The translations under genes were made by a program, and so were the position numbers. This document shows, piece by piece, positions 4,082 through 31,311 of a stretch of DNA of 32,000 nt. This stretch comes from Marinomonas profundi (lineage in GTDB: Bacteria; Pseudomonadota; Gammaproteobacteria; Pseudomonadales; Marinomonadaceae): NCBI RefSeq assembly GCF_020694005.1, contig NZ_CP073013.1, positions 1,156,578-1,188,577 on the forward strand. The letters run 5' to 3'. Each line of letters opens with the position of its first letter. The first letter of the stretch is position 1. A model generated the notes under the pieces. That model did not search any database, was not told the DNA's origin, and saw nothing but the letters and a program-made list of their open reading frames with translations.

Positions 4082-5242
4082 CTAGATATTAATATCATTT
4101 ACAATGTGCTTTTTATAAGCTCTATTCATTGCAAACATAAATAAAATAAAAAGATAAGCGTTAGGTGAAAAGATCAAACCTTTGAAGTTTAACCAAAAAC
4201 CAGCAAAAACCCATACAAAGAAGAAAGCTTTATTTCCGAATGCCCTAAAGCAAAGTATAACTATAAAAAATAGAAATAAGGTTGTATAAAAAACTCCACC
4301 ATAGTTTATTAATATTATCCAACCAGGGTCAACAGTAGAATTTAAACCCGGCAAAAACATATAATTACCATTACCTAAAATAAACTCTAAAAAATCAGCA
4401 TTTGTAAAAATGAAATGATCCTCAAAAATAATATTTATAGTTCTCATTCCACCACTAGAGAGTTCTTCTTGTAGGCGCTGTGGTAGGTAATCGACATAGT
4501 ATAAATAAATAAATACTAATATAATGAAAAACCAAAATGATAAAAATAAAAACCTAAAAAAATAGCGAGACTTGAAGCGAGTTAAAAAACCAAGAATCAA
4601 TGCCACTACAACATTATTGGAATTAAATAACTGAGTAAAAACGATAAAAAAATTAAAAACCTTCACCCTAAATAATGTCAATACTGTAAGCACCATAACG
4701 AATGGTGCTGTAAAATTAATCTCTGGCGTATAACCAAAACCTCTCGTATAATAATTCCACTCATAAATGATATTAACGCTATTTGACATACCCATAATGG
4801 AATAAATAAGTTCTTTACCACCTGGGTAATAAAAAGTAAAAAACCAAAAAAAAGTCTGTAGTAAAAAAACACTAAGAATTAATTTTTTTAACTTGTCATC
4901 ATCACCTTTTAAATAGTAACAAACAAAAAACGCAGAGGGAACAACTGACATAATAAAAATAGTCAGGGCCCTAACTGTAAATGAATTAGTTAGTTTATTA
5001 GCAAGAGCGCCTGTAGTAATATCAACACAAAACGAGTAAAGAAAAATAAAAGTATAAATAAAGATAAAACTTAAGCCTAATGCATTAATTAAAACCAATC
5101 TAAATCGTAAACTAAAAAGGAAAACACACCCTAAAAGACCCAAAAAAAAAGAGAAATAAAATGTTGTAAAAAAAACCGGTATCCGAAAAAAAACAATAAA
5201 AAAAAGAATTATAAAAAAAACGACTTTCATGAAAAAACCCAA
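4082..5242 (-). CDS. Polytopic membrane protein, probable O-antigen/repeat-unit polymerase (Wzy-like)
   Basis: 386 aa, extremely Phe/Ile/Leu-rich with many predicted TM segments and very AT-rich DNA. It sits in a locus that also has wzx. The start is ambiguous: TTG at 5242 or ATG at 5230. The call rests on context only. Confidence 0.5.
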   Translation of the reverse strand: MGFFMKVVFFIILFFIVFFRIPVFFTTFYFSFFLGLLGCVFLFSLRFRLVLINALGLSFIFIYTFIFLYSFCVDITTGALANKLTNSFTVRALTIFIMSVVPSAFFVCYYLKGDDDKLKKLILSVFLLQTFFWFFTFYYPGGKELIYSIMGMSNSVNIIYEWNYYTRGFGYTPEINFTAPFVMVLTVLTLFRVKVFNFFIVFTQLFNSNNVVVALILGFLTRFKSRYFFRFLFLSFWFFIILVFIYLYYVDYLPQRLQEELSSGGMRTINIIFEDHFIFTNADFLEFILGNGNYMFLPGLNSTVDPGWIILINYGGVFYTTLFLFFIVILCFRAFGNKAFFFVWVFAGFWLNFKGLIFSPNAYLFILFMFAMNRAYKKHIVNDINI

Positions 5243-5281: not shown

Positions 5282-6283
5282 TCAAGACTTATCCTCCATA
5301 AAATAATCTGCTCTATTCTTTAATAAACTATAATGTTCCTTATGGGAAACCAACAAAAGCTCTTTTTTAAAACTGCTATAACTTCTAAATATCGTCACTA
5401 TTTTAAGAAAAAAACCAAAAACAAAACGATAAAATGCAATGTTAAAGAAAACATTAAGGAACTTATTTTTTTTTCGAAACAACCATAGTCTATTTTCAAG
5501 AACAAACCTAGAAAAAAAATTATCAGACCTTTCTATTAAATAATTATAAACTTTAACTTTGTCGTTAAAAAAACGTCCTTCAGCAGTAATATATGAAGAA
5601 CCAGATGTCCTTCTATAATAAACAAATACCTTATTACTTAGTGTAAATATAGAATCTGGATTCTTCTCTGCAATTGCAACCTGTAAAGGCCAATCTTCTA
5701 CTACATCATAATCCTTAAGAAAAGAGATTGTATCTGGATCAGTTAGATTTTTAAAATTGTAAAACATATTTGGCGCATTATTATTGGAAAGAAAGATAAA
5801 ACGATCAATTAATTTTTTTCCTCTGTATATATGGTGGGAGGAAATCACTTCCAAAGAGGTTTTGATACTTTCGTTGATGAAATTCTCAGTAAGAATTAAT
5901 GGGATACCACTCGAAAAAGAAACATTATCACTCAACGATGAATGTTCAAATATATTTTCGTAAGAGTAAACATCATCACCTGCTGTAATCTTCAGTCTCG
6001 TTGTATCAACATTCTCTAAGATATTTAGAACAGATGCGCATGTTCCAGAATTACTAGAGTTGAATATTTTTTTCACATTATTAAAAATAGAAAAATTCTC
6101 ATTAAGCCAATAAGAAAGGTATCTGACAGTATTATCTGTAGATGCATCATCATTTACTACCAAGTCTACTTCCCAATCATCCCCATAGCTATCAATCAGA
6201 TACTTTATACTTTCTAAGTGTTCAACAATGTATTCTTGGTGATTATAACAAAGCACTGCAAATGTAAATCGCTTTCTTGACAT
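5282..6283 (-). CDS. Glycosyltransferase family 2
   Basis: The N-terminus FTFAVLCYNHQEYIVEHLESI...VVNDDASTDNT is the classical GT2 (GT-A, DxD-type) signature. The ATG at 6283 is preferred over the adjacent TTG at 6286. Confidence 0.8.
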   Translation of the reverse strand: MSRKRFTFAVLCYNHQEYIVEHLESIKYLIDSYGDDWEVDLVVNDDASTDNTVRYLSYWLNENFSIFNNVKKIFNSSNSGTCASVLNILENVDTTRLKITAGDDVYSYENIFEHSSLSDNVSFSSGIPLILTENFINESIKTSLEVISSHHIYRGKKLIDRFIFLSNNNAPNMFYNFKNLTDPDTISFLKDYDVVEDWPLQVAIAEKNPDSIFTLSNKVFVYYRRTSGSSYITAEGRFFNDKVKVYNYLIERSDNFFSRFVLENRLWLFRKKNKFLNVFFNIAFYRFVFGFFLKIVTIFRSYSSFKKELLLVSHKEHYSLLKNRADYFMEDKS

Positions 6284-6714: not shown

Positions 6715-8151
6715 TTAATTTTTTATTTTACTATAAATCATACCAAAACTATTCAAAAAAAATTTATCACGCAGCACAAAAAGCATTGCTATATAAATAA
6801 TCGCGCCTAATGCTATTTTAACAAGCAATGTCAGTAACAAGCTATCGTTAGCTGAAATCAGGCCAATCGCGAAATACATAAGCGCTGCAGCAATGATGTA
6901 TTTGTACGCTATTTTTAATTGTGCTATTCCACCGAAACCAAAGAGCTTGCCCGGGTAATAAGAATTTATAAAAAATGCAATAAAAGAAGTACAGACCATG
7001 GCCCATGCTAACCCCTCAATACCGTAGGGCAATGCTATAAATAAGGCCGCCACAGTCATTGGTAATTTAGAAAGGTCTACTTTCAAAAATAAATCTGAGC
7101 GACCTATTGCGTTGAGTATATTTAGGTTAATTGAGCTTATTGGGGTAATTGACCTTGCAAAACATAAGGCGATTAAAACCGGTATAACAGGCAACCAGTC
7201 TTCACCTAAAAGTAACCTAACAAATTCATTTGATACCGCTGCAAAGCCAATAAGTAGCGGTACAGAAACCAACATCGTGATGGATATTAACTGTGTGTAT
7301 ACATTAACCAACCGCTCTCTATCATCTTTTATAGAGGTCATAATAGGGTATGTTACACCTTGCAATGTTGAGTTTATAAATTGTGTAGCGTAATTACTAA
7401 GATTTGTTGCTTGTGTAAAATAACCTACCTGAGTTGCATTAAAGTAACGCCCGACTAATGCAACATAAAGATTATTAACAAAAGTGGCAACAAAACCTGC
7501 AAGCATTAAATTAGAGCCAAATTTAAACAACCTATTAAATGACTCAGCACTAAAAATGAACTTAGGTAACCATTGGCAGTAAAACCATAGCACGATTCCG
7601 TTAAAAATAGATTTAGTTATTAGTAACCACACTAATGACCAGTAGCCATAACCAGCCATAGCCAAATAAATCCCTATACATGCACTCAGCAAAGTAGAAA
7701 TTGTATTGGCTATAGCCTGGCTTTTAAAATCTATATTAATAGTAAGCTTGGCACGAACCACAACAGTTAGAGAGCTTACTAAAATAACTAAAAACAAAAC
7801 CCTAGATATTTCAACTAACTCTGGCGCATTGTAAAAAGCCGAAATAAATGGGGCACAGAAATATAATAAAAAATACATTACTATACCCCAAAAAATATTA
7901 ACATAAAATATTGTAGAAGAATCTTCCTCTGTCAAATATTGGCTTCGCTGTATAAGCGCTTGGGCGAAACCATTATTCACCACGCTTTCAGCTAACAAGG
8001 TAAAAATAGTTAGCATTCCGATCAAACCAAAACTTTCTGGACCAATGATACGTGCAATAAAAATAGTCACAGCTAAATAACCTAGCTGGTTAATTAACTT
8101 ATCAGATAAACTCCAAACAACTCCATTTAATGCTTTAGCCCTAAGTGACAT
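6715..8151 (-). CDS. wzx: Wzx-type polysaccharide flippase (MOP/PST family)
   Basis: 478 aa polytopic protein. The N-terminus KALNGVVWSLSDKLINQLGYLAVTIFIARIIGPESFGL is typical of PST-family flippases. Confidence 0.8.
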   Translation of the reverse strand: MSLRAKALNGVVWSLSDKLINQLGYLAVTIFIARIIGPESFGLIGMLTIFTLLAESVVNNGFAQALIQRSQYLTEEDSSTIFYVNIFWGIVMYFLLYFCAPFISAFYNAPELVEISRVLFLVILVSSLTVVVRAKLTINIDFKSQAIANTISTLLSACIGIYLAMAGYGYWSLVWLLITKSIFNGIVLWFYCQWLPKFIFSAESFNRLFKFGSNLMLAGFVATFVNNLYVALVGRYFNATQVGYFTQATNLSNYATQFINSTLQGVTYPIMTSIKDDRERLVNVYTQLISITMLVSVPLLIGFAAVSNEFVRLLLGEDWLPVIPVLIALCFARSITPISSINLNILNAIGRSDLFLKVDLSKLPMTVAALFIALPYGIEGLAWAMVCTSFIAFFINSYYPGKLFGFGGIAQLKIAYKYIIAAALMYFAIGLISANDSLLLTLLVKIALGAIIYIAMLFVLRDKFFLNSFGMIYSKIKN

Positions 8152-8165
8152 ATGATTTAAATGAC

Positions 8166-9251
8166 CTATATAGTGAATATTATTTTATTTAGTAAAGGCA
8201 TTGTCATATCACCACTATAATTACCTACACGATCTGGATGAAACATCTCACTCTTCAAACTTTCAATTTGTGGATTACTAACATATTTAGCTAGACGATT
8301 ATCAAGATCCATACCCTCCAACATTAATTTTATTCGAAGTAAAAGATGTTTTTCTTTACTATCGGGTTTCATCAAAACATAATTGTGTATTAATCTTGGT
8401 AATGTAAAACTACATGCAAGGCCATGCGGCACACCATAGTGGCTTGTAAGTGGATATGATATTGAGTGCGCTATAGCTGTGCGAGTTTGGCTAATCGCCA
8501 GGCCTGCCAAAACGCTGGCATTTTGCATTGCTGTGCGTGCTTTCAAGTCTGAAGGTCTATTAAGCACTTGAGGTAATGCTTTTTCAGCCAGCTCCAGAGC
8601 CTGAATAGCAAAACTGCTGCTAACAGGGCTACGGTTGACATTCCATAACGATTCCAGTGCATGCGAGACCGCATCCAAACCTGTGTAGAGGGTTTCCTGG
8701 TCAGGTAGACCCAGTGTTAACTCTGGGTCAAGAAGTACCTTTTCTGGAAAGATTTGATCACCAATCACCGAGTATTTTTTATGCTGAGTCTGATCCCAGA
8801 CGGTAGCAAAAGGTGTTACTTCTGCACCTGTGCCTGAGGTGGTCGGAATCACCACCAAAGGCAGCTTTTGTTGCCAAACGTGTTTCTTGCCCTGGCGTAA
8901 AACTTCAGTCAGTGGCTGCTGCAATGCACTGGGTAGCGCAACAGCAAGCACCTTTGCTGCATCCAGCACACTCCCACCACCAATTGCAATAATACCCTGA
9001 AATTTTTGGCTGCGATAATGCTGAATAATCGCTTCTAAATCATCCAGCTCAGGGTTGGGTGTAACTTGGTCATGGACTATCAACTGCACATCAGATAACA
9101 AATACTGAATCTTTTCTGTCAGCCCACGACGTGTAAAACCTGCCGAAGTTACCAACAACCAACGACCAGGTGTTATCAACTGTGGCAGTTTTTCTAGACT
9201 ACCCGCCCCTGCAATCAAGGTGGCCGGATTATGATAGTGCCAGTCCTTCAT
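8166..9251 (-). CDS. Group III iron-containing alcohol dehydrogenase, putative phosphonoacetaldehyde reductase (FomC/PhpC-like)
   Basis: GGGSVLDAAK motif and a His-rich metal site (AHSISYPLTSHYGVPHG). There is a 4-bp ATGA overlap with the upstream phosphonopyruvate decarboxylase gene. Confidence 0.7.
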   Translation of the reverse strand: MKDWHYHNPATLIAGAGSLEKLPQLITPGRWLLVTSAGFTRRGLTEKIQYLLSDVQLIVHDQVTPNPELDDLEAIIQHYRSQKFQGIIAIGGGSVLDAAKVLAVALPSALQQPLTEVLRQGKKHVWQQKLPLVVIPTTSGTGAEVTPFATVWDQTQHKKYSVIGDQIFPEKVLLDPELTLGLPDQETLYTGLDAVSHALESLWNVNRSPVSSSFAIQALELAEKALPQVLNRPSDLKARTAMQNASVLAGLAISQTRTAIAHSISYPLTSHYGVPHGLACSFTLPRLIHNYVLMKPDSKEKHLLLRIKLMLEGMDLDNRLAKYVSNPQIESLKSEMFHPDRVGNYSGDMTMPLLNKIIFTI

Positions 9252-10366
9252 AAACCTGCTGCCTTCATGAAAGCAAGTTTGTTTTCTTCTGGGGTGCTGG
9301 TAGGCCTAGCCAAGTCATCGCGTGAACCCGTAGTGATTTTGATCTCAAACAGCATCGGTCCTGGTTGATGTTGAATTTCCTGCCAAGCTGTTTCAATGCC
9401 AGCTTGATCACTGGCACTCCAATAGCCCTTGTAGCCACTGGCGAGAGCAAGTGCTTTGAAATCGATGTTACCAGCTACGGTCGGCTGCCCACCCACTGAC
9501 TCATGAGCGGCATTGTTCAGGAGCACATGCACCATGTTTTTTGGAGCCACATCACCTATAATCGGCAATGCGCCCAAATGCATTAAAACCGAACCATCGC
9601 CATCAATGCAGACAACCTTTTTGCCTGGATTACCCAAGGCAGCACCCAGTGCAATAGAGGCTGTATGCCCCATGCCGCCGACTGTTAGAAAATCACGCTG
9701 GATTTCGCCCCGCTCAACACGTAATTCAAACACTTCTCGCGAGGTTTTCCCAGTCGTGCTGACCACCAGGCTAGAACCGGTTAGATTGAGCAAAGAGCGC
9801 AATGCATCTTCACGCTTCATTTGTGAAGGCGAAGTCGACTTGCGCATACTTTTGTATTGTGAGAAGGTGCCTTTGCGTACAAGAAAAGCGATGGCAGAAC
9901 CTGTTTCCACTACTTTTTGAAGTGCGTCCTTTAGCGTTGCTTCCAGATCTGTATCTTGATCTAGTACCCAGTAGGGTATCCCCAAAAGGTCCAACTGCTG
10001 TGGTGTAATCGCACCCTGTTTCACATGCTGTGGTTCATCCTTGATACCAGGTTCACCACGCCAGCCGATGATCATTACCAGGGGTATTTTGTAGACATGA
10101 GGATCAGTAATTGATGTCAATGGGTTAATCGTATTACCCAACCCTGAGTTTTGCATATAAACCGCAGCTAATTTCCCTGTGGTTAGATGATAACCCGCAG
10201 CCATGGCAATCGCATTACCTTCATTAGCTGTAATAATGTGTTCCCCAGTTCGACCGTGATCATCAACATATGCACAAAAATCTTTGAGCAAAGAATCGGG
10301 AACACCTGCAAAGAGACCGATACCGGCCTCTTGCAGTTTTGTATAAAAAATTCGAGGTTCAATCAT
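9248..10366 (-). CDS. ppd: Phosphonopyruvate decarboxylase (ThDP-dependent; Ppd/AepY/Fom2 type)
   Basis: 372 aa. The N-terminus LQEAGIGLFAGVPDSLLKDFCAYV is typical of Ppd. It carries the ThDP motif GDGSVLMHLG...LLNNAAHES and lies immediately downstream of the PEP mutase. Confidence 0.85.
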   Translation of the reverse strand: MIEPRIFYTKLQEAGIGLFAGVPDSLLKDFCAYVDDHGRTGEHIITANEGNAIAMAAGYHLTTGKLAAVYMQNSGLGNTINPLTSITDPHVYKIPLVMIIGWRGEPGIKDEPQHVKQGAITPQQLDLLGIPYWVLDQDTDLEATLKDALQKVVETGSAIAFLVRKGTFSQYKSMRKSTSPSQMKREDALRSLLNLTGSSLVVSTTGKTSREVFELRVERGEIQRDFLTVGGMGHTASIALGAALGNPGKKVVCIDGDGSVLMHLGALPIIGDVAPKNMVHVLLNNAAHESVGGQPTVAGNIDFKALALASGYKGYWSASDQAGIETAWQEIQHQPGPMLFEIKITTGSRDDLARPTSTPEENKLAFMKAAGL

Positions 10367-10375
10367 AAAAATGCC

Positions 10376-11680
10376 TTATTTGGTTCCAGGAATCAACTCA
10401 AGAATATCTTTGAGTGGCAACATCTTATCGTCACATTCTTTAGATCGCTGATTCGTTAAAATAGACTTTGCAGTTTCTAACATGGCTGGGTAAGCAGAAC
10501 GTAATAATTGGTTAGCGTAAATCACAATATTAGCTCCCTTTTCTTGCAATTCAGCTTCTGTTACCGAGTTGTAGCTTGAAGGAACCACAACTAACGGCTT
10601 GCGATTTAGAAATTTATTGTAGTGATCACAGAACTCGAAAATCTCTGCGGGGTCTTTTTTCCGACTGTGAATCATAATCCCATCAGCACCAGCATTGAGA
10701 TAAGCCTGTGCACGCTTAACTGCATCATCCATACCTTGATCGAGAATCAAACTTTCAATACGGGCTATAATCATGAAATCATCGGTCGCTTGGGCTTTTT
10801 TACCCGCCATAATCTTGGCACAGAAGTTATCAATAGAATCCTGAGTCTGCGGAACATCGGTACCAAAGAGTGAGTTTTTCTTCAGACCTGTCTTATCTTC
10901 GATAATCGCAGCTGATACACCCAAGCGCTCAAGAGTACGGACAGTAAATTCAAAATGCTCTGACTGCCCACCAGTATCAGCATCATAAACAATAGGCTTG
11001 GTGGTGACTTCAAGCACCTCATTTAAGGTATTCATTCGAGCAGAAACATCTACTGCCTCGATATCTGGTTTACCTTTTGCAGTCGAATCAGTCAGTGAAC
11101 TTCCCCACATACCGTCGAATTCACGAATACCTTCGGGTGTTTCTACCTTTGTATTCTCAATAATCAAACCACTAAGTGCATTATGGATATCTATGAAACG
11201 CAACAATGGCTTAACCTGGAGCATGCGGCGTAATGACTTTAAACGTAAATCTGGTGTAGTACCAATTTCCCGTAATGCCTTATTAAGCTGTGTAGAAGAA
11301 ATTCCAGCAGTATAGGGCACCTCAATTAGTTCACCACCCCATTCAGCTAGTGTATCGATAACGCGTTGACGAGTCTCACGCTGAACGCCTTCTCGCCAAT
11401 CATCGCCATGAACAACATAATCAGGTTTAAGCTTTATCAAATTGGGTACATAATCGAGTGTATCTTGCACTACAACACGTGATACACCCTTAATATTCTC
11501 GATGATAATCTTACGCTGCTCAAACTCCATATATGGAATTCTTTTGTAACTGGCAATAGCTTTGTCTGTTAGCAACCCTACAACTACTTCACCATGCTCT
11601 GCTGCTTTTTTTAATATATTTAGATGACCAGGGTGCACTAAATCTGCACTCATTCCAACATAGACAACTTTATTGCTCAT
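10376..11680 (-). CDS. ppm: Bifunctional cytidylyltransferase / phosphoenolpyruvate phosphomutase (Fom1-like architecture)
   Basis: The N-terminal ~130 aa carry [16 protein letters not shown] (HxGH) and YTAGISST (RTxGISTT-like), the GCT/TagD-type cytidylyltransferase signatures. The C-terminal domain contains [12 protein letters not shown], the PEP-mutase-specific EDKx5NS motif. Confidence 0.85.
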
Positions 11681-12975
11681 AATAACATCCTTAGCTCATT
11701 GATTATTTTATCAGAGGGCCCCCCCCCCGAGAAAAAAGGTTTTATATTAACGTCATGAAAATTATTGATGGGTGCATTATCCACTTCCTTTCTATTATTA
11801 TCAATTACAAAATCCACAAAGTTAATAATAGAGAGTTTGTTTACACCATGTTTACAGCAAGCCAATGCAGACAAGCCAAAACCATTTAAGTTATTTCTAG
11901 TATTAGGATTCAATAAATAAAGAACAGGTTTTTTTAAATACAAATATTCCGCTAAAAAAGAACCGCAGTCATGAATAATAGCATCTGAACTTATGAATAA
12001 ATCATCATATTCACCTTCATCAAGCTGCGAGCATTCTCCATCACTCCACATTCTATAGTATTTATCTGTTTTCTCTTTACCCCAATCTGGATGGTTATAC
12101 AATTTTGATTTTAATATTGGATGGGGTTTAAAGGCCCACTGCACATTTTCTTTATAACTATCTACTAAATCCAACATCAATTCCGCATAAATTAAGAAAT
12201 TAGATAGTTGTAACTCAGCATTTTCGATAGTGTGATGTGGCGCATAAATAATTTTAAACTTATTTTGTGCCTTTTTCCATGGACAAGCAACCAGATTATT
12301 CTCAAACAATGATTCACAAGCAGGATAGCCCGTTAAAACACAATTCATACCATCATTACTCGAAACAACCCTAGCTAAATTCATTGAATCAGAATGTGGC
12401 ATAAAAATCTTCCACATCAAATTGTGAAAAAGGTGATTATAAAGCGATTGATCATTACCGTGTGATGTAACCAAGTAAAAATAAGGCACGTAACAGCTTA
12501 AATAATTTAAATACGCATCTTCGTAATATTCTTTTCTGGTTAAGTTATGTGGATTAGTAAAAAACACAATATCAGGTTTAATTTCACTTAGGCCCAGCCA
12601 TGTGCCATCACTATTTAACGACTTAAGAACGGGATAACCCTTTTCTTTAAAAAAAGTGAACGTTTTATCCATATCTTCAAGCATTCTTTCTTCTCCATAT
12701 AAGGTATATGGACACACTAAGATTTCTGGTTCAAAGTAGGGATCTTCTAGCATTTTTCTAAAAACAGGATCAACTTTCCACACACTTTTATGGATAGCCA
12801 GGAATACCACCTTAATTTTTTCCTTTCCCTTAATACTAGACAAAAGCTGTTGATGCTTATGCTGCATATGCTGAGCAAGCTTTCTTTTTCTGGGGTTATC
12901 TAACAACTTAACTTTAAGCGGATTAAATAACTGCTTAAATATGTTAATTGACGATCGAAATATTTTTCTTAGCAT
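11677..12975 (-). CDS. Putative phospho(no)transferase, TagB/TagF (CDP-glycerol glycerophosphotransferase)-like
   Basis: 432 aa. The C-terminal half has the family layout IIYAPHHT ... FKPHPILK ... [26 protein letters not shown], which parallels the YAPT.R / HP / TDYSS..fD....KP blocks of the family. The stop overlaps the ppm start (ATGA). The family assignment is by eye only. Confidence 0.5.
11719..11728 (-). repeat. Homopolymeric tract, C10 on + strand (G10 in the mRNA sense) inside the 3' end of CDS 11677-12975
   Basis: Counted directly: gagggcc cccccccc ga. It encodes S-G-G-G-P, 17 codons before the stop, in an otherwise very AT-rich gene. Confidence 0.95.
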
Positions 12976-13187
12976 TCTTACTAACTCTTAAAATTTGATT
13001 TTTTTATAACACTAGTTCATTAACAAATAAAATGGACGCTAAATGAAAAATTAACTATTATTACTCTCAATTGAAATCAAAAAATACAGCCTATTCGAAG
13101 TTTGTTACATCTATAGATGTCTTTTAGAAATCAATCTAACTATCGAAAACTAAATTTATTATTTTCGCATTACTTGATCATCAATTC

Positions 13188-14441
13188 CTATATTAAATTT
13201 AATATTTTATTTATATCAACTGTATAATCAGCCTGAATATCTTCATTATTGCTCGATTCACATTTAAAAAACTTAAGATCACATCCATAATATTTAGCAA
13301 TAGTTGAATAACATGAAAAGTCACTCGCATTATCGCTCAACCAACTCAGACCTATAGTACCTTTATTCACATAAATCAGATTAGTCCATCCTGCACCTGA
13401 TGCACCAACCAGATAGTCAACATTTTGAAATAGATATACCTGCTGAAAAAATGAGAGGTCTTCTAAAAAAACTGGAAAAAAATCTTTTTTAACTAATATT
13501 TCTAACACTTCATTTTGGTTATATTTTCTCACTGATCCTTCTTTTCGACAAAGGAATACTTTTTTATATTTTATTTTATCAGCCTCACTATCTAGGAACG
13601 ACAAATATTCTGCACTATTCAATATCGACTCTCGCAAAAAGTCTACACTTTCTCTATCTATAAAAAAAAAGTTCTTTTTAAAATCAGCACCATGCGCGAC
13701 ATTAAAAACAACATTTGAAGGTGATGTAATCGTGTACAATTCGTTAACCAAAGCTAGGCGATTTTCATTTAAATATATAATCTCATACCTTTCCTTTAAA
13801 ATAACTGAGACCATCATAGAGAAGCTTTCAATTTTCTTTGCATACTCAGGTAGAATTATTGTTATTTTTTCTTTGTTTAGAGCTGATTCAAGAAAATATT
13901 TTAACTTGGTTACTATCTCAATCGTCCAATGATAATAATTCCATGAACCGTTTCCACCTATAAATAAAGCTCTTTCAATTTCAACAACTTTAAAACCCGT
14001 TTTAATTATTGAAAAAAAACTATTATGGCAGCTTATATGACCTGTTGAATAATTGCATTGATCTACATGAATGTGAGGCAATCTCTCCAAAACTACAGCG
14101 TCTTTTAAGACAATATGAGAACTTTTAGCATGAACATAACCTGTCTTCAGCTTATATAAATTTACATCTGGCATCTCAACACTGAATTTATTTTCCACCG
14201 TATAACAAGGTTCATAAGCATCTGTTGAACTACTCTGTTTAAGCGTTTCTATTGTGCTTAGAGTATCAAGCCACACTATAGGTCTAACATTTCTTGCAAC
14301 CACTTTCCTAATGAATAAACTACTACTTTCATTAGCTTTAAAAATTAAAGCATTATATTTTCTACTCGTTTTTTTCTTAATCGAAATCAGTGAATTCCAT
14401 TTCTCTTTAGGCAAATATTTTTTTAGTATTTTTTTTATCAT
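13188..14441 (-). CDS. Glycosyltransferase family 61 / DUF563-like
   Basis: 417 aa. [19 protein letters not shown] resembles the N-x-YHW-x-xE motif of DUF563/GT61 proteins. The DNA is AT-rich. The start overlaps the stop of the aminotransferase gene (ATGA). Confidence 0.55.
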
Positions 14442-19287: not shown

Positions 19288-20271
19288 TTATCGTAGAACG
19301 ATCCAGGTACCATTACGTTTTGATCCTTGGTATTCAAGTTTGCCTTCTTTTTTTAGCTTAGCTACGGCTCTTTCAACGGCACTCAATGAACGATCTATAT
19401 GGATTGCGACATCTGCAAGCGCAAGACTCGGCGATATTTCAAGGATATCAAGAATCTGGTCGGTTGTTTTTACCCGCGTTTTAACCTGCGTTTTTACCCG
19501 CGTTTTTTGTTCCACTGACATTGCTTCATTTAATGAATCGCTCATCGCGGTCAGAAGGAACTCTATGAATTGAGTGCTATCACACCGAGCATCGGCTTCT
19601 CTCAATGTTTGGTAGTACTTTTCTTGACGCGCTTTAATAACAGTCTCTACAGGTAAAAAGGCGAGCAAGGGGTGCCATTCAGTCAAAATAAGCGTTTGCC
19701 AGAAACGCCCCATCCGTCCATTGCCATCGCTAAACGGGTGAATAAATTCAAATTCGTAGTGAAAGGCCGCTGACGCAATGAGCGGGTGGGCATCGGTTGA
19801 TTCTAGCCAAGCCAATAGTTGTATCATTAATCGCGGAATCTGATTGGCTGGCGGGGCCATATGTACCAGTTTTTCACCGCGATATATGCCAGCGCCACCA
19901 TTTCGCCACTGTCCCGCGTCACTAATCAGCCCTTTCATCATAAGGCCATGCGCCTGAAGCAGATCATCGCCATTCGTCGATGACCACTCCCCCATAGATT
20001 CATAAACGGCAAACGCATTATGAACCTCTTGGATTTCTTTCGGCGATCCAAACACAGATTTTCCGTTTACTAATGCAGTGACTTGCTCAACGGATAAGGT
20101 ATTTTGTTCAACAGCCAAGGATGCTTGAATAGTACGTATACGGTTCGCTTTTCTAAGCTGCGGTACCAGCTCATTTTTATTCACTGCGGTCCATTTACCT
20201 ATTTTCTCTGAAATATCAGACACTAGGTTCATCATAGTGTGAGTAAGTAGAAATGGCGGCGAATACGGCAT
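19288..20271 (-). CDS. Fic-domain protein (AMPylase family) with C-terminal wHTH
   Basis: Fic motif HPFSDGNGRMGR. An N-terminal inhibitory-helix-like segment reads SLAVEQN. A VKTR/VKTQ tandem linker is followed by a wHTH-like tail. Confidence 0.9.
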   Translation of the reverse strand: MPYSPPFLLTHTMMNLVSDISEKIGKWTAVNKNELVPQLRKANRIRTIQASLAVEQNTLSVEQVTALVNGKSVFGSPKEIQEVHNAFAVYESMGEWSSTNGDDLLQAHGLMMKGLISDAGQWRNGGAGIYRGEKLVHMAPPANQIPRLMIQLLAWLESTDAHPLIASAAFHYEFEFIHPFSDGNGRMGRFWQTLILTEWHPLLAFLPVETVIKARQEKYYQTLREADARCDSTQFIEFLLTAMSDSLNEAMSVEQKTRVKTQVKTRVKTTDQILDILEISPSLALADVAIHIDRSLSAVERAVAKLKKEGKLEYQGSKRNGTWIVLR

Positions 20272-20658: not shown

Positions 20659-21150
20659 TCAGCGGCCTATTCCTCTGCTGCTAAGATCGGTGTTGATAGC
20701 GTCTGCAACTCCCATTAAAAAACCTAAATTGCCATGGGCAGTTTGCAATGCGTCCACCAGTAGATTCAAATCTTCAATGTATTCATGAATCATTTGATTT
20801 CTCAACTGTCGCAGTTCTAGCCATAATTCAACTGAAGGCAATACACCAATTTTTTCTGCTTTATCTAAATTATCAATCGCGACGTTTGTCTTTTCTTCTA
20901 ATATATCTAGCCATGCTGGTAGAAATTTATCACCTAGCGTGTCCTGCAAACGGCAAAATCGACTAATGAAAGCCTCTAGCTGCTCAGCAAGCTCTTCGTT
21001 ACTGTTCAGCTGTTCGGCTAATTCAAGTGTAAACGGCTGATGAAATATTTTAGATGCCGAATAGTTTAAATGGTGAATTTCTCTGTCAACCACTCGTTGC
21101 AAAAACATTACCCTTTCTAGCTTATCAACGGCATTATTTTTTGACTTCAT
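20659..21150 (-). CDS. HEPN-type putative toxin partner of the upstream nucleotidyltransferase
   Basis: 163 aa. It carries an Rx4H motif (RQLRNQMIHEY) near the C-terminal third. The start overlaps the MNT stop (ATGA). Confidence 0.6.
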   Translation of the reverse strand: MKSKNNAVDKLERVMFLQRVVDREIHHLNYSASKIFHQPFTLELAEQLNSNEELAEQLEAFISRFCRLQDTLGDKFLPAWLDILEEKTNVAIDNLDKAEKIGVLPSVELWLELRQLRNQMIHEYIEDLNLLVDALQTAHGNLGFLMGVADAINTDLSSRGIGR

Positions 21151-21446
21151 AATAAAACCCCCTTGTTCTGCGCTATCTGGTGTATTGGTAAACTTTTTAA
21201 ATTAGGCGCAGACAATAAGACATCCACTTTACGGCCTTGAAACAATCTAATGAGACGTGCACTTATTTTTGATGACAATACAGCAGGATGTTCAATCACA
21301 TTATTTAGAGTAATCAGCAAGTCTATGTCTCCACCTTTTTTAGTATCATCAACACGAGAACCAAATAAGGTCACTTTTGCGTCTTCGCCAGCGAGCATGG
21401 CAACCACTTGCTTTATTGTTTGCACCTGATTGTCTGTTAATCTCAT
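21147..21446 (-). CDS. Minimal nucleotidyltransferase (MNT) domain protein, putative antitoxin
   Basis: 99 aa. LFGSRVDDTKKGGDIDLLI matches the GS-x(9-10)-DxD polymerase-beta-type NTase motif. A GGAG SD lies 8 nt upstream of the ATG. Confidence 0.8.
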   Translation of the reverse strand: MRLTDNQVQTIKQVVAMLAGEDAKVTLFGSRVDDTKKGGDIDLLITLNNVIEHPAVLSSKISARLIRLFQGRKVDVLLSAPNLKSLPIHQIAQNKGVLL

Positions 21447-21696: not shown

Positions 21697-21873
21697 GTAG
21701 GCCGGATGAGGGAGGCACGACCGTTATCCGGCGATGAAGGATGAGGGAAGCACGACCGTTATCCGGCGATGAAGGATGAGGGAGGCACGACCGTTATCCG
21801 GCGATGAAGGATGAGGGAGGCACGACCGTTATCCGGCGATGAAGGATGAGGGAGGCACGACCGTTATCCGGCG
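21697..21873 (+). repeat. Five head-to-tail copies of a 35-bp REP-derived unit (forward orientation)
   Basis: ggatgaggga(g/a)gcacgaccgttatccggcgatgaa starts at 21704, 21739, 21774, 21809 and 21844, an exact 35-bp period. The first copy is preceded by cgtaggcc and the last ends ...ccggcgttgga. Confidence 0.95.
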
Positions 21874-21940: not shown

Positions 21941-23377
21941 ATGTTGGATGTTAAGCATCATGGTGCGGTGCAGGGTGTGACTGGGTCTTGCCATGAGTTG
22001 TTTGTGGATGGTGACAATTCGGTTTTGGTGGATTGCGGTTTGTTTCAGGGGGCGGAGACGTCTGGATCTGGGGCAGATTCGAATAGTTTAGAAATAGACT
22101 TTGATCTTTCTGCTGTGCAGGCGTTGGTTATTACTCACGTTCATATCGATCACGTTGGGCGTTTGCCGTATTTGTTGGCAGCGGGGGTTACTGGGCCGAT
22201 TTATTGCTCTAAGCCGAGTGCGGCTTTGTTGCCTTTGGTGATTGAAGACGCACTAAAAGTCGGAGTCACGCGCAATGCCAGTATTATTGAGGCGTGTTTA
22301 GATCGCTTGGCATCGCAATTGGTGCCGTTGGAATACAAAGAATGGACGAGTATTCCGCTTGCAGGGAAAGGTTCTAGCGTTCAGTTACGTTTGTGCCGTG
22401 CGGGGCATATTTTGGGCTCGGCGTATGTGACGTTTCGGGTGAAAAATGCCGAGATAAAATCAAAAGGCAAAGCCTATCACGATGTGGTGTTTTCTGGGGA
22501 TTTGGGGGCGCCCTATTCGCCTTTATTGCCCGCGCCACAATCTCCTTATCGAGCTGATCAATTGGTTATTGAAAGTACCTATGGTGATCGCAACCATGAA
22601 AACCGATCCACTCGACGCCAGCGTTTGCAGAGTAGCTTAGAACACGCGTTGAGCGATTCGGGCACAGTACTTATTCCAGCGTTTAGCATTGGCCGTACGC
22701 AGGAATTGCTGTATGAGTTGGAACATATAATTCATCAGAACAAGCAGAAAACCGTGAGCCAAACGCGTTCAGGTGTGCCACTAAACTGGGAAGACATTGA
22801 TATTATTATCGACTCCCCTCTCGCCAGTCGTTTTACTACTGTGTATCGATCGTTGAAAACCTATTGGGACGCAGAAGCCAAGCGTCGGGTTAATGCAGGC
22901 CGTCATCCATTGAGCTTTGAGCAAGTCACTACGATAGATGACCATGCCACCCATTTACAAACTGTCTCTTACCTACAGCGCCAAACTCGTCCTGCCATTG
23001 TTATCGCCGCTTCCGGCATGTGCGCCGGTGGGCGGATCGTAAATTATTTAAAAGCATTATTGGGCGATGAACGCAATGACGTGTTGTTTGTAGGTTATCA
23101 GGCGACAGGGACGCCAGGCCGGGACATTTTGAAGTATCACAATAAACCCAATGGGTATGTCATGTTCGATGGTGAGCGGTATGCCATTAACGCCAAGGTA
23201 CAGCAAATAAGCGGGTATTCCGCCCATGCAGGGCAACGGGATTTATTAAACTTCATCAAACGCATGCGCGTCCGTCCGGAAAAAGTCCACCTAGTACACG
23301 GCGACGACCGCGCCAAGCAGACACTGAAAAGCATGATTGAACAAGAAAACCCCACATGCCACGTCATCGTACCGTAG
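21941..23377 (+). CDS. MBL-fold metallo-hydrolase of the beta-CASP (RNA-metabolising) family
   Basis: Start moved to MLDVKHHGAVQGVTGSCHEL at ATG 21941, which has GAGGG upstream. The ORF-track start at 21839 lies inside the tandem repeat. It carries the HxHxDH motif (THVHIDHVGR) and a beta-CASP-like C-terminal part (YSAHAGQRDL, VHLVHGD). Confidence 0.85.
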   Translation: MLDVKHHGAVQGVTGSCHELFVDGDNSVLVDCGLFQGAETSGSGADSNSLEIDFDLSAVQALVITHVHIDHVGRLPYLLAAGVTGPIYCSKPSAALLPLVIEDALKVGVTRNASIIEACLDRLASQLVPLEYKEWTSIPLAGKGSSVQLRLCRAGHILGSAYVTFRVKNAEIKSKGKAYHDVVFSGDLGAPYSPLLPAPQSPYRADQLVIESTYGDRNHENRSTRRQRLQSSLEHALSDSGTVLIPAFSIGRTQELLYELEHIIHQNKQKTVSQTRSGVPLNWEDIDIIIDSPLASRFTTVYRSLKTYWDAEAKRRVNAGRHPLSFEQVTTIDDHATHLQTVSYLQRQTRPAIVIAASGMCAGGRIVNYLKALLGDERNDVLFVGYQATGTPGRDILKYHNKPNGYVMFDGERYAINAKVQQISGYSAHAGQRDLLNFIKRMRVRPEKVHLVHGDDRAKQTLKSMIEQENPTCHVIVP

Positions 23378-23932
23378 AAATGTGTGGCTCACCGGATTTG
23401 GTCTAGTCCCTTCCCCTTTTCTCTTCCAAGGGGAAGGTTAGGATGGGGTTCAGGTCTTGTAACCCCCTCCCAGCCTCCCCCTTAAAGACACAAGGGGGAG
23501 GAGCAGAGCTGAGTTGTCTAGTCCCTTCCCCTTTTCTCTTCCAAGGGGAAGGTTAGGATGGGGTTCAGGTCTTGTAACCCCCTCCCAGCCTCCCCCTTAA
23601 AGACACAAGGGGGAGGTGCAGAGCTGAGTTGTCTAGTCCCTTCCCCTTTTCTCTTCCAAGGGGAAGGTTAGGATGGGGTTCAGGTCTTGTAACCTCCTCC
23701 CAGCCTCCCCCTTAAAGACACAAGGGGGAGGAGCAGAGCTGAGTTGTCTAGTCCCTTCCCCTTTTCTCTTCCAAGGGGAAGGTTAGGATGGGGTTCAGGT
23801 CTTGTAACCCCCTCCCAGCCTCCCCCTTAAAGACACAAGGGGGAGGAGCAGAGCTGAGTTGTCTAGTCCCTGTTGTGGTTGAATTAGCCGGACACTTCAA
23901 TAAAGGATAATATCCAATTATTGAGGTGTAAA

Positions 23933-24220
23933 ATGACTAAACGTACTAACAAACAATATCCAAACGATTTTAAGCAAGAAGCGGTGGCGCTGGTGATTGA
24001 GCAAGGTTACTCCGTTGTTGAGGCTGCCGCTTCACTGAATATCACTGACAAGCTACTTTATAACTGGGTAGCGAAGTTTAAACAACAAGATGAAGATTCA
24101 GAGTTGTCGAAGGATGAGCGGGCTGAACTCGTTCAGCTCAGAAAAGACAATAAGCGCTTGCTGATGGAGCGCGAAATATTAAAAAAGGCTTCAGCGTTTT
24201 TCGCAAAAGAAATGAAATAA
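23933..24220 (+). CDS. IS3-family transposase OrfA (HTH)
   Basis: MTKRTNKQYPNDFKQEAVALVIEQGYSVVEAAASLNI... The ATG at 23933 has a GAGGTG SD. The ORF-track start at 23921 is a TTG. Confidence 0.9.
   Translation: MTKRTNKQYPNDFKQEAVALVIEQGYSVVEAAASLNITDKLLYNWVAKFKQQDEDSELSKDERAELVQLRKDNKRLLMEREILKKASAFFAKEMK
24181..24187 (+). promoter_or_regulatory. Programmed -1 ribosomal frameshift heptamer A_AAA_AAG (OrfA to OrfAB)
   Basis: The heptamer is in the zero frame of orfA (tta aaa aag). The -1 frame is open from here through orfB with no stop. The stem agaaatgaa/ttcatttct at about 24207-24232 encloses the orfA stop. Confidence 0.8.
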
Positions 24221-24276
24221 AATATTCATTTCTCAAAAGTTTAGGTAAGCAGTACCCAGTTGCCATATCGTGTAAA

Positions 24277-25089
24277 GTGATGCGCGTTAGCAAATCTGCA
24301 TACTATGCTTGGCGAAAACGTCCCGCGATAATTATCAGTGCACAAACACTGAATTTACATCGTAGGGCGAAGGCGCTTTTTGAAGATAGTCGAGGCAGTC
24401 TGGGTAGCCGAGAGCTTGCGAAAAAGCTTCGCAAAGAAGACTTTGATGTTAGCCGGCATCGTGTCATTGGCTTGATGAAACGATTGGGGTTAGTCGTTAA
24501 GCAGCGTATCGCTTACAAAGTCACCACAAAGCGCAAAGACAGTGATGCTGTAGCGGATAATTTATTGAACATGAATTTTAACCCGTTAGGCCCAAACCAG
24601 GTGTGGGCTGGGGATGTGTCATATTTAAAAACAGGCGAAGGCTGGCTATACCTTGCTATTGTAATGGATTTATTTGGTCGTCGCATAGTGGGTTGGCACA
24701 CGTCAAAACGTATGACGACAGACTTAATTGAGCATGCATTTTTAAAAGCACATCGCTTACGACAGCCGCCAAAGGGCTTAGTGTTTCATAGCGACAGAGG
24801 CTCGCAATACACGAGTAAACACTTTAGAAGCCTATTAAAACGGCTTGATTGCCGCTCTAGCATGGGTGACGTCGGTGCGTGTTGGGATAATGCCGTGGTT
24901 GAAAGGTTCTTCGGCAGTTTAAAACATGATTGGTTGTTCAAGGTAGCACAACCAACAAGAGAGCATATGAAGCAAGATGTTGCGGCGTATGTGAAATATT
25001 ACAATCTGGAGCGATTACATTCGTCGAATGGCGACCAATCACCCATTGAGTATGAAAACTCCTTTAGGAAAGTGTCCGGTTGGACTTGA
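24277..25089 (+). CDS. IS3-family transposase OrfB (DDE/RNase H-fold catalytic part; expressed as an OrfAB fusion)
   Basis: DDE candidates are WAGDVSYL, FHSDRGSQY and NAVVERFFGSLK. The frame is -1 relative to orfA. Confidence 0.9.
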   Translation: MMRVSKSAYYAWRKRPAIIISAQTLNLHRRAKALFEDSRGSLGSRELAKKLRKEDFDVSRHRVIGLMKRLGLVVKQRIAYKVTTKRKDSDAVADNLLNMNFNPLGPNQVWAGDVSYLKTGEGWLYLAIVMDLFGRRIVGWHTSKRMTTDLIEHAFLKAHRLRQPPKGLVFHSDRGSQYTSKHFRSLLKRLDCRSSMGDVGACWDNAVVERFFGSLKHDWLFKVAQPTREHMKQDVAAYVKYYNLERLHSSNGDQSPIEYENSFRKVSGWT

Positions 25090-25392
25090 CCAGAACACCC
25101 TTCCCCTTTTCTCTTCCAAGGGGAAGGTTAGGATGGGGTTCAGGTCTTGTAACCCCCACCCAGCCTCCCCCTTAAAGACACAAGGGGGAGGAGCAGAGCT
25201 GAGTTGTCTAGTCCCTTCCCCTTTTCTCTTCCAAGGGGAAGGTTAGGATGGGGTTCAGGTCTTGTAACCCCCTCCCGGCCTCCCCCTTAAAGACACAAGG
25301 GGGAGGAGCAGAGCTGAGTTGTCTAGTCCCTGTTGTGGTTGAATTAGCCGGACACTTCAATAAAGGATAATATCCAATTATTGAGGTGTAAA

Positions 25393-25680
25393 ATGACTAA
25401 ACGTACTAACAAACAATATCCAAACGATTTTAAGCAAGAAGCGGTGGCGCTGGTGATTGAGCAAGGTTACTCCGTTGTTGAGGCTGCCGCTTCACTGAAT
25501 ATCACTGACAAGCTACTTTATAACTGGGTAGCGAAGTTTAAACAACAAGATGAAGATTCAGAGTTGTCGAAGGATGAGCGGGCTGAACTCGTTCAGCTCA
25601 GAAAAGACAATAAGCGCTTGCTGATGGAGCGCGAAATATTAAAAAAGGCTTCAGCGTTTTTCGCAAAAGAAATGAAATAA
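25393..25680 (+). CDS. IS3-family transposase OrfA (copy 2)
   Basis: Identical to 23933-24220. Confidence 0.9.
   Translation: MTKRTNKQYPNDFKQEAVALVIEQGYSVVEAAASLNITDKLLYNWVAKFKQQDEDSELSKDERAELVQLRKDNKRLLMEREILKKASAFFAKEMK
25641..25647 (+). promoter_or_regulatory. Programmed -1 frameshift heptamer A_AAA_AAG (copy 2)
   Basis: Identical to 24181-24187. Confidence 0.8.
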
Positions 25681-25736
25681 AATATTCATTTCTCAAAAGT
25701 TTAGGTAAGCAGTACCCAGTTGCCATATCGTGTAAA

Positions 25737-26549
25737 GTGATGCGCGTTAGCAAATCTGCATACTATGCTTGGCGAAAACGTCCCGCGATAATTATCAGTG
25801 CACAAACACTGAATTTACATCGTAGGGCGAAGGCGCTTTTTGAAGATAGTCGAGGCAGTCTGGGTAGCCGAGAGCTTGCGAAAAAGCTTCGCAAAGAAGA
25901 CTTTGATGTTAGCCGGCATCGTGTCATTGGCTTGATGAAACGATTGGGGTTAGTCGTTAAGCAGCGTATCGCTTACAAAGTCACCACAAAGCGCAAAGAC
26001 AGTGATGCTGTAGCGGATAATTTATTGAACATGAATTTTAACCCGTTAGGCCCAAACCAGGTGTGGGCTGGGGATGTGTCATATTTAAAAACAGGCGAAG
26101 GCTGGCTATACCTTGCTATTGTAATGGATTTATTTGGTCGTCGCATAGTGGGTTGGCACACGTCAAAACGTATGACGACAGACTTAATTGAGCATGCATT
26201 TTTAAAAGCACATCGCTTACGACAGCCGCCAAAGGGCTTAGTGTTTCATAGCGACAGAGGCTCGCAATACACGAGTAAACACTTTAGAAGCCTATTAAAA
26301 CGGCTTGATTGCCGCTCTAGCATGGGTGACGTCGGTGCGTGTTGGGATAATGCCGTGGTTGAAAGGTTCTTCGGCAGTTTAAAACATGATTGGTTGTTCA
26401 AGGTAGCACAACCAACAAGAGAGCATATGAAGCAAGATGTTGCGGCGTATGTGAAATATTACAATCTGGAGCGATTACATTCGTCGAATGGCGACCAATC
26501 ACCCATTGAGTATGAAAACTCCTTTAGGAAAGTGTCCGGTTGGACTTGA
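25737..26549 (+). CDS. IS3-family transposase OrfB (copy 2)
   Basis: Identical to 24277-25089. Confidence 0.9.
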   Translation: MMRVSKSAYYAWRKRPAIIISAQTLNLHRRAKALFEDSRGSLGSRELAKKLRKEDFDVSRHRVIGLMKRLGLVVKQRIAYKVTTKRKDSDAVADNLLNMNFNPLGPNQVWAGDVSYLKTGEGWLYLAIVMDLFGRRIVGWHTSKRMTTDLIEHAFLKAHRLRQPPKGLVFHSDRGSQYTSKHFRSLLKRLDCRSSMGDVGACWDNAVVERFFGSLKHDWLFKVAQPTREHMKQDVAAYVKYYNLERLHSSNGDQSPIEYENSFRKVSGWT

Positions 26550-26810
26550 CCAGAACTCCCTTCCCCTTTTCTCTTCCAAGGGGAAGGTTAGGATGGGGTT
26601 CAGGTCTTGTAACCTCCTCCCAGCCTCCCCCTTAAAGACACAAGGGGGAGGAGCAGAGCTGAGTTGTCTAGTCCCTTCCCCTTTTCTCTTCCAAGGGGAA
26701 GGTTAGGATGGGGTTCAGGTCTTGTAACCCCCTCCCAGCCTCCCCCTTAAAGACACAAGGGGGAGGAGCAGAGCTGGGGATCTAGTGTATTTAGCATGGA
26801 GGCTAAGTTT

Positions 26811-28574: not shown

Positions 28575-28627
28575 AACGCCGCTTTTTTTCAGGTAAGCGC
28601 CTCGTGCCTCATCTCATCCGGCCTACG
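28575..28627 (-). repeat. REP-like element (long form, reverse) overlapping the 3' end of the MNT gene
   Basis: aacgccgctttttttcaggtaagcgcctcgtgcctcatctcatccggcctacg. The MNT stop codon TAG is the complement of the CTA in CCTACG. Confidence 0.85.
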
Positions 28628-28964
28628 TCTTTGGTTCGTGCACTGGCTCACTTGTTGTGCCCAATTTTCGTCCATGTTGTGCTATGTGTGCCAGCATTTC
28701 TTCGGATTTTATGGTGTTTAAATCTAAGATATCAAAGAAATAGGGGAAGGTGGTTTCTTCATTGAGCTGGTTAGATAACCGTATCACTACTGAGTGGTCT
28801 AGTTTGTTGCCAGAGATGACGATGTCTACGTCAGAGCCTGGCTTATAGGTACCTTTGGCTCTTGACCCAAAAATCATCACAGATTCAATCTCATGAAAAC
28901 TTTGAATGATGTCATTTAGCTCTTCAAGCTCTGTTGAGGTTAACCCAAAGTCGGCTTCCATCAT
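28623..28964 (-). CDS. Minimal nucleotidyltransferase (HI0073-like), putative antitoxin
   Basis: 113 aa. IFGSRAKGTYKPGSDVDIVI is the NTase motif. There is a 4-bp overlap with the upstream HEPN gene. Confidence 0.8.
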   Translation of the reverse strand: MMEADFGLTSTELEELNDIIQSFHEIESVMIFGSRAKGTYKPGSDVDIVISGNKLDHSVVIRLSNQLNEETTFPYFFDILDLNTIKSEEMLAHIAQHGRKLGTTSEPVHEPKT

Positions 28965-29308
28965 TTGGTTAGTCTCTCGGTAAAATTTCGATGAAAGTCA
29001 TTTAAAATCGGGTAATAAGTCGACTTTATTTTTAGCTCGACCAGTTGAGCGGTTTCCTCTTGATAAGTGTGTACGGTTAAATTTCTGTCGCTCAGGGCTT
29101 CTAGCCATTCTTTACCGTTTCCAATCAGCTGATATTGAAACGCGGTTTTTATTGCGTCACATGGGCTGCTTATCGAAAAGCCTTCTTCTTCTTGAAAGTC
29201 TTTCAGTACTTTCCAAGCAAGCTCAAAGGATATTTCGAAGAACTGAATCATTCCTGCACGCTCAATAACGGATAGTTTTTCCAGCTCAGTGGTGGTTTTT
29301 AGTAACAT
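28961..29308 (-). CDS. Nucleotidyltransferase substrate-binding protein, HI0074-like (HEPN superfamily)
   Basis: 115 aa. FEISFELAWKVLKDF and the Rx4H motif SDRNLTVHTY are characteristic of the HI0074 family. Confidence 0.8.
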   Translation of the reverse strand: MLLKTTTELEKLSVIERAGMIQFFEISFELAWKVLKDFQEEEGFSISSPCDAIKTAFQYQLIGNGKEWLEALSDRNLTVHTYQEETAQLVELKIKSTYYPILNDFHRNFTERLTK

Positions 29309-29502
29309 AAACTTCTGGAAAAGTTTTGAAATCGTTGCTTCCAGCGTGCTTCTTGATAGTTCATATATTCATCCCAAATACACTATAACGACGAAAATCA
29401 TACTAACAAAATGCAGTGTTGTTGACCATTCGTGACGTTATGCTGCCAGCTTAAATGCGCGACCTATTTGGTTTTGTCTGTTTTTTTGTAGGTCATGATT
29501 TA

Positions 29503-30349: not shown

Positions 30350-30448
30350 GGATAAGGCCTTTTTCGTTTAGGTGTTTGCCATTGAAATATACGGTTTATT
30401 TTGAGGGTGTCAATGTTGGGCAAGCGAAGCTGGGGCGGAAGAACACAA

Positions 30449-30531: not shown

Positions 30532-30542
30532 TTTTTGTTTAT

Positions 30543-31173: not shown

Positions 31174-31224
31174 AGAGTCTCACTGTAAAGGTTTGCTTGA
31201 CGTTTTGATTATTCCATGGCGTTG

Positions 31225-31291: not shown

Positions 31292-31311
31292 AAATGGTGA
31301 TGTGACGTGGT

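Follow-up and report, generated by a model that had tools for sequence, protein, structure and literature searches.

Poly-G phase variation is established for the capsular O-methyl phosphoramidate (MeOPN) transferases cj1421 and 06810 of Campylobacter jejuni (PMC3417653, PMC5808241; PMC8949473). In cj1421c and cj1422c of strain NCTC11168 and in 06810 of strain NCTC12662, an intragenic run of about 9-10 G lies within a transferase that adds a small phosphorus substituent to a surface polysaccharide, and a slip of +1 or -1 truncates the protein. The genes that make the substituent stand alongside and are not themselves switched, and phage select for MeOPN switching (PMC3417653, PMC5808241, PMC8949473). 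We analysed a comparable arrangement in Marinomonas profundi, within a 32,000-nt stretch of contig NZ_CP073013.1 (assembly GCF_020694005.1, positions 1,156,578 to 1,188,577; hereafter the window). Here a G10 homopolymer lies within a gene that most likely encodes a putative cytidine monophosphate (CMP)-(2-hydroxyethyl)phosphonate:glycan phosphonotransferase, next to genes for phosphonate biosynthesis. As in the C. jejuni loci, a slip of +1 or -1 truncates the product, and the neighbouring biosynthesis genes would not themselves be switched. The tract is a credible yet unproven candidate for slipped-strand ON/OFF control of 2-hydroxyethylphosphonate (HEP) decoration, and we place the probability that slippage in G10 turns the transferase on and off at roughly 45%. 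The gene and its tract are located as follows.

11677-12975, minus strand: TagF-like transferase gene, 432 residues, matching PF04464
11719-11728, minus (sense) strand: G10 homopolymer, read directly from the sequence; the plus strand reads CCCCCCCCCC (C10)
11719-11728, minus strand: coding content of the tract, the third base of TCG (S416) followed by GGG GGG GGG (G417-G419)

In the sense direction the tract reads TCG GGG GGG GGG CCC, encoding S416 G G G P420; counting on from TCG, the stop comes as the 17th codon. It occupies nt 1248-1257 of the 1299-nt open reading frame (96% along the gene) and is separated by 38 nt from the ATG of the next gene, ppm. The sequence-only reading had described a G10 run encoding SGGGP and had called it unexpected in an AT-rich gene; the sequence itself, the GC content of the gene (32.9%) and a census of runs all agree with this. 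No other G/C run in the window exceeds 5 nt: the census counted 34 at 5 nt, 0 at 6-9 nt and 1 at 10 nt. Global composition or first-order Markov models predict 0.008-0.014 G/C runs of at least 10 nt per 32 kb, and block-wise Markov simulation with the tract masked predicts 0.057. Under local codon usage, SGGG would be encoded as TCG GGG GGG GGG with a probability of 3e-4. The tract is a clear local outlier in composition. It also has the form of a contingency locus, for which the usual repeat is a G/C homopolymer of at least about 7 nt within an open reading frame or promoter: this G10 lies within open reading frame 11677-12975.

Two other features of base composition were observed. GC content jumps near the tract, from 41-48% in the ppm-ppd-adh genes (8000-11000), which resemble the rest of the window, to 29-33% in the transferase and GT61 glycosyltransferase genes (11700-14400), with the boundary about 40 nt from G10. 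Poly-A and poly-T runs are also present: a stretch of 80 nt (5142-5220) at the 5' end of a gene for a 386-residue protein (4082-5242, minus strand) contains five A8-A9 runs, a T9 lies at 5466-5474 in a GT2 gene and an A9 at 13662-13670 in the GT61 gene. As additional switches, poly-A/T runs of at least 8 nt in the adjacent AT-rich genes were rejected, since 13 were seen against a Markov expectation of 12.3 +/- 3.3.

Next, the consequences of slippage were read from the frames.

11711-11713, minus strand: TGA stop of the G11 (and G8) frame, ending 30 nt before the ppm ATG
11703-11705, minus strand: TAA stop of the G9 (and G12) frame, ending 22 nt before the ppm ATG
11680-11718, minus strand: codons P420-L432, forming the last helix (modelled as H420-431), from translation, alignment and the AlphaFold2 model

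Translation of the shifted frames gave SGGGAL followed by a stop for G11 and SGGGPLIK followed by a stop for G9, just as the sequence-only reading had proposed. Its claim that either slip truncates the C-terminus also held, with +1 and -1 both dropping helix 420-431. Its estimate that termination moves by 40-50 nt did not: the premature stops lie 34 nt (G11) and 26 nt (G9) upstream of the native stop. Codons P420-L432 are wholly lost in the G11 frame, and the G9 frame keeps one Pro codon (CCT) before LIK and the stop. A transferase-Ppm fusion produced by frameshifting was also considered. The G11 frame is the frame of ppm but its TGA closes 10 codons before the ATG, and hence no fusion protein is possible.

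The segment lost on slippage is conserved across the family. We aligned 40 homologues with 50-59% identity to the window transferase. P420, S421 and I424 were each at least 90% conserved, and the terminal motif [PSTA][STA]xx[ILVM]xxx[ILVMF] was present in 40 of 40, with at least 13 residues after the Pro. Related terminal motifs (SASENI..L, TVAENIY.EL) persist in most of the distant homologues, at 25-40% identity. By contrast, the SGGG residues (416-419) occupy four hypervariable columns without indels, so that the tract carries no cost for the protein. In an AlphaFold2 model built from the 40 homologues (predicted local distance difference test score, pLDDT, 90.5; predicted template modelling score 0.88), residues 416-419 form the loop between helices H401-415 and H420-431, with pLDDT above 90. 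In GT-B enzymes both Rossmann domains are typically crossed and touched by the C-terminal helix (PMC5527307), and by the topology of the model the lost segment is this terminal helix. Judged from the sequence, G10 is the in-frame, functional ('ON') length, the sole length that gives both the conserved helix and the ATGA junction with ppm. Loss of function of the truncated transferase is plausible given the conservation and the modelled fold.

The transferase matches its Pfam family only just above threshold. PF04464 (CDP-glycerol glycerophosphotransferase, CDP being cytidine diphosphate) matched residues 211-353 at 27.0 bits, against a gathering cutoff of 22.1; none of the NCBIfam models matched, and PDB sequences searched with a profile yielded no match. 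The model has a GT-B fold of two Rossmann domains, and Foldseek aligned it to TagF structures 3L7K, 3L7M and 3L7J with E = 2e-9 to 6e-9; uridine diphosphate N-acetylglucosamine 2-epimerases were slightly better matches (E = 6e-12). H247, H248, H285 and H335 are invariant in the 40-homologue alignment. The enzyme resembles the TagF/TagB teichoic-acid glycerophosphotransferases (PDB 3L7I-3L7M) in Pfam family, GT-B-like fold and a donor that leaves as CMP. It differs from them in sequence (about 14% identity) and in its Gram-negative O-antigen context, and unlike the polymerase TagF it is probably a single-addition decorator. For a CMP-HEP donor, we infer, a TagF-like enzyme that releases CMP makes chemical sense as the transferase.

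A homologue in Logan assembly ERR2843943 (P0004; L083 189-1487) is 58% identical to the window transferase overall, nearly identical over about residues 25-165 in the N-domain and divergent in the C-domain. In its locus, ppm-ppd-adh are replaced by an Asn-synthase-like gene and a gene for a free-standing cytidylyltransferase. From the alignment, the pair looks like a mosaic, or like a donor-binding-domain swap between glycerophosphate-type and phosphonate-type enzymes.

The assignment to phosphonate transfer draws on the surrounding genes.

10376-11680, minus strand: ppm, a cytidylyltransferase-phosphoenolpyruvate mutase fusion of Fom1-like architecture (PF01467 + PF13714; architecture as in PMC6697681)
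9248-10366, minus strand: ppd, phosphonopyruvate decarboxylase (TIGR03297 at 453.8 bits, cutoff 312.5)
8166-9251, minus strand: adh, a PhpC-like iron-dependent alcohol dehydrogenase (PF00465 + PF25137)
6715-8151, minus strand: Wzx-type flippase, which closes the cassette (PF13440 + PF01943) and has the same place in the closest-homologue loci L085 and L086
278-11320 of L085 and 2970-11347 of L086: the conserved cassette in the closest-homologue loci

The Ppm fusion scored 408.6 bits against TIGR02320 (cutoff 319.55) and carries the EDKxxxxxNS motif. The alcohol dehydrogenase scored 371.3 bits against the phosphonate-linked model TIGR03405, below its cutoff of 423.7; it is predicted, by analogy with PhpC (PMC8942020), to be a phosphonoacetaldehyde reductase making HEP. 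The cytidylyltransferase domain of Fom1 makes CMP-HEP (PMC6697681; PMC8942020). By domain content, the cytidylyltransferase-Ppm, Ppd and alcohol dehydrogenase together are the HEP branch. Upstream of the transferase lie rmlB, rmlA, fdtA, an fdtC-like gene, fdtB and the GT61 glycosyltransferase gene, and beyond wzx come GT2, the 386-residue protein, which has no Pfam match and is provisionally Wzy-like, and genes resembling fnlA/B/C. The locus is O-antigen-type by its gene content.

Of the two closest homologues of the transferase, at 59% and 58% identity, one is from Pseudomonas sp. C27(2019) and the other from metagenome contigs. Both sit in the cassette fdtA - acetyltransferase - aminotransferase - transferase - cytidylyltransferase-ppm - ppd - iron-dependent alcohol dehydrogenase - wzx, a context into which the 'phosphonate transferase' label of the sequence-only reading fits well. 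Conservation of the cassette suggests that the phosphonate is linked to a repeat unit containing a 3-acetamido-3,6-dideoxyhexose. Across the 79 family loci from GTDB genomes, ppm and/or ppd/adh occur within 4 kb of the transferase in about 10. Many of the others have a stand-alone cytidylyltransferase instead, suggesting that these are CDP-glycerol users. Gene adjacency and conservation of the cassette thus make attachment of HEP to glycan the most likely role of this transferase. A candidate phosphonyl transferase that our analysis adds is the PF04464 enzyme encoded in the conserved fdt - transferase - cytidylyltransferase-ppm - ppd - adh - wzx cassette.

Set against the C. jejuni MeOPN transferases, the closest analogues found, the Marinomonas enzyme belongs to another family and the substituent there is a P-N phosphoramidate, as opposed to a C-P phosphonate here. 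The C. jejuni tracts truncate most of the protein, whereas the Marinomonas tract removes the last helix only. C. jejuni is without MutS/MutL and has about 29 such tracts. Switching has been demonstrated in Campylobacter; none was observed in Marinomonas. A closer match in enzyme family is 06875 of C. jejuni NCTC12662, a CDP-glycerol:poly(glycerophosphate) glycerophosphotransferase with the same PF04464 annotation in a surface polysaccharide (capsule) locus, in which deletion of one T from a T8 run abolished function and gave phage resistance (PMC8949473). It differs from the Marinomonas gene in that its run is poly-T and not poly-G, most of its resistance mutations lie outside homopolymers and its donor is CDP-glycerol, not a phosphonate. 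The Marinomonas locus is like Fom1-type phosphonoglycan pathways in its PF01467-Ppm fusion with EDKxxxxxNS, its Ppd, its iron-dependent alcohol dehydrogenase and its adjoining glycan genes; in the available portions of the reports on those pathways, LicD-like transferases are mentioned but neither PF04464 phosphonyl transfer nor a repeat-based switch (PMC6697681, PMC8942020). A full-text literature search found no paper on homopolymeric phase variation of phosphonate.

In the mechanism that we propose, the cytoplasmic GT-B, TagF-like transferase would move HEP from a CMP-activated donor, supplied by the adjacent cytidylyltransferase-Ppm, Ppd and alcohol dehydrogenase, onto the O-antigen repeat unit. 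G10 lies in a sequence-tolerant loop, and a G/C run of its length is inherently liable to replication slippage of +1 or -1; either slip would close the frame within 2-4 codons and remove the conserved C-terminal helix. The truncated transferase would probably be unstable or inactive, because the lost helix normally packs across both Rossmann domains in GT-B enzymes. Phosphonate decoration would then be lost until a compensating slip restored G10. Little change in the translation of ppm-ppd-adh would be expected, given the separate Shine-Dalgarno motif of ppm and the short distance, 22-30 nt, from the new stops to its start. As to rate, G10-G11 tracts in C. jejuni switch at 4e-4 to 4e-3 per division, and in meningococci the frequencies for G10-G12 are 1-3e-5 in the wild type, which is proficient in mismatch repair, and 2-8e-3 in mutS mutants (PMC3401435). 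By analogy, slippage of about 1e-5 is a reasonable guess for a gammaproteobacterium proficient in mismatch repair.

Several observations weigh against a switch. The draft assembly GCA_012584435.1 (contig JABAEK010000024.1, L080) matches the window at 100% identity across 12,551 bp, G10 included. No difference in tract length between isolates was seen, in a comparison of two consensus sequences only, which possibly come from one strain. The draft and the window are not the same consensus, since the draft has four copies of a 35-bp repeat where the window has five and a region of insertion sequence (IS) and 115-bp repeats is collapsed in it. No G/C run of at least 7 nt was found at the tract site in any of about 85 homologous loci (the 79 GTDB loci and three loci of the two closest homologues among them). 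The global models scaled to a 3.65-Mb genome predict about 1-2 G/C runs of at least 10 nt, and the block-wise figure scales to about 6. Selection is therefore unproven by composition alone. The window has a single such tract in 32 kb, and bacteria that use contingency loci usually carry many. To our knowledge, Marinomonas, a free-living marine genus, is not known for repeat-mediated phase variation. Finally, the slips replace just the last 12-13 native residues, 96% along the open reading frame, and the truncated enzyme may for that reason still work.

The leading alternative, somewhat less probable than the switch, is that the tract is incidental: three GGG glycine codons that drifted in a tolerant loop, a mutational liability held at G10 by purifying selection and of no biological meaning as a switch, or one whose slips are silent because the truncated forms stay active. 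The hypervariable loop columns, the one to two (up to about six) runs expected per 3.65 Mb by naive models, the solitary tract, its far 3' position, the G10 shared by both assemblies and the lack of a tract in any homologue are all in line with this explanation. Four findings speak for the switch instead. G/C runs of 6-9 nt are strongly avoided in the window (0, against 34 of length 5), the codon choice is improbable (3e-4), the lost helix is conserved family-wide, and glycan-decorating transferases are the gene class most often phase-variable.

No closer allele of the tract turned up in the databases searched. No transferase protein above 59% identity was present among 5.8 billion clusters, and scanning metagenomes for the two flanks of the tract, separated by any 6-16 nt, returned 0 matches. 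A protein search with the C-terminal 150 residues gave just 4 distant matches; it missed the query's own protein and hence is uninformative. Look-ups for the exact products of the transferase, Ppm, Ppd and GT61 genes found none on record. A relative of Ppd in Logan SRR24908288 (L082) has 88% DNA identity, and its contig ends inside ppm, short of the junction. Long G/C runs are rare in the homologous loci as a whole, with 4 of at least 9 nt and 1 of at least 10 nt in 673 kb. Runs were observed in three distant homologues' loci, from gut or rumen metagenome-assembled genomes: a C8 inside the transferase gene of a Fibrobacter (L038 4569-4576), a G7 inside the gene (4779-4785) and a G9 about 160 nt past its stop (5352-5360) in Ca. 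Aphodosoma (L041), and a C12 about 3 kb downstream of the transferase gene in an Oscillospiraceae genome (L043 8198-8209). None lies at the position of the window tract.

We also considered effects of the tract on the genes downstream, for which two features of the junction matter.

11677-11680, minus strand: ATGA, in which the transferase stop overlaps the ppm start, read directly
11688-11692, minus strand: AAGGA, a Shine-Dalgarno-like motif 7 nt before the ppm ATG, read directly

The ATGA overlap with the cytidylyltransferase-PEP (phosphoenolpyruvate) mutase gene is present as the sequence-only reading described it, and the loci of the closest homologues also retain a stop/start overlap, which spans 4 nt in L085 and, by annotation, 11 nt in both L086 and L087. 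The annotated ppm start of L086 looks 21 nt too far downstream. Tract length could in principle set where upstream translation terminates, and through it reinitiation at ATGA and the output of Ppm, Ppd and alcohol dehydrogenase, giving a graded supply of phosphonate. We consider this improbable, and the coupling into ppm-ppd-adh that the sequence-only reading had suggested is weakened. A start that depends obligately on upstream translation lacks an accessible ribosome-binding site of its own, which is not the situation of ppm with its AAGGA at 7-nt spacing. RNA structure masking this site was rejected, because the 151-nt region folds no better than shuffled sequences (z = 0.23). The OFF-frame stops lie merely 22-30 nt upstream, from where ribosomes would still clear the site, and an untranslated gap of this length would be too short for Rho loading and polarity. 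A terminator scan of the region found no intrinsic terminator near the tract.

Even less probable is that the tract forms part of the spacer of an internal ppm-ppd-adh promoter, its length tuning transcription as poly-G/poly-C spacers do at Neisseria porA and opc. An extended -10-like sequence, TGATAAAAT (11713-11705, minus strand), begins 5 nt past the tract, and the resulting leader would include the Shine-Dalgarno motif. However, no -35 element with at least 4 of 6 matches lies at 16-18 nt, the site was not among the hits of a consensus scan, promoter-like hits in the region were at chance level (14, against 10.5 +/- 2.5 expected) and a -10-like hexamer is no surprise in DNA this rich in AT. 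Long-read assemblies are well known for indel errors at homopolymers, but it is scarcely credible that the true length is other than 10, with the gene a pseudogene or free of a long tract, when two assemblies that differ elsewhere agree on G10 and no other length brings back both the conserved terminal helix and the ATGA junction.

Other repeats and mobile elements were observed in the window. A 35-bp tandem repeat (21704-21873; 4.9 copies by TRF) lies just upstream of a beta-CASP/RMMBL RNase gene (21941-23377) whose product is 90% identical to its M. rhizomae counterpart. Counting of the core motif gives 5 units for the window against 4 for the draft, a difference that may be either a true variable-number tandem repeat or a short-read assembly collapse. 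Single further copies of the 15-nt core of the repeat lie at 28506 and 31272. A 115-bp repeat with G/C palindromes forms arrays (23401-23871, 25098-25331 and 26557-26776), which are split by two IS3-family copies (orfA, 99 residues, and orfB, 270 residues) that are identical at 1225 of 1226 nt and inserted at the same point of the 115-bp unit. Their 1460-bp spacing suggests a tandem duplication of the IS together with two units. The draft assembly ends or collapses at this region (23401-26776). The polysaccharide locus is flanked by several toxin-antitoxin pairs of an MNT/Polbeta nucleotidyltransferase and a HepT-like RNase (28623-31743; 20659-21446) and by a Fic-domain gene (19288-20271).

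It is rather unlikely, in our judgement, that the tract is an evolved contingency switch for C-P (HEP) decoration of the O-antigen in a free-living marine bacterium. Since the tract is single and unvaried, its present value is that of a cheap and well-defined experiment rather than a result. Beyond the tract itself, our analysis adds the terminal helix as a conserved feature of the transferase family. If real, the switch would be of a known kind, and both its chemistry and its host, a free-living marine bacterium, would be unusual for it. Repeat-mediated phase variation would then be shown for a phosphonoglycan for the first time, with direct evidence of fluctuating selection on phosphonate decoration, for example by phage or grazers, and the switch would provide natural isogenic ON/OFF alleles for probing phosphonoglycan function.

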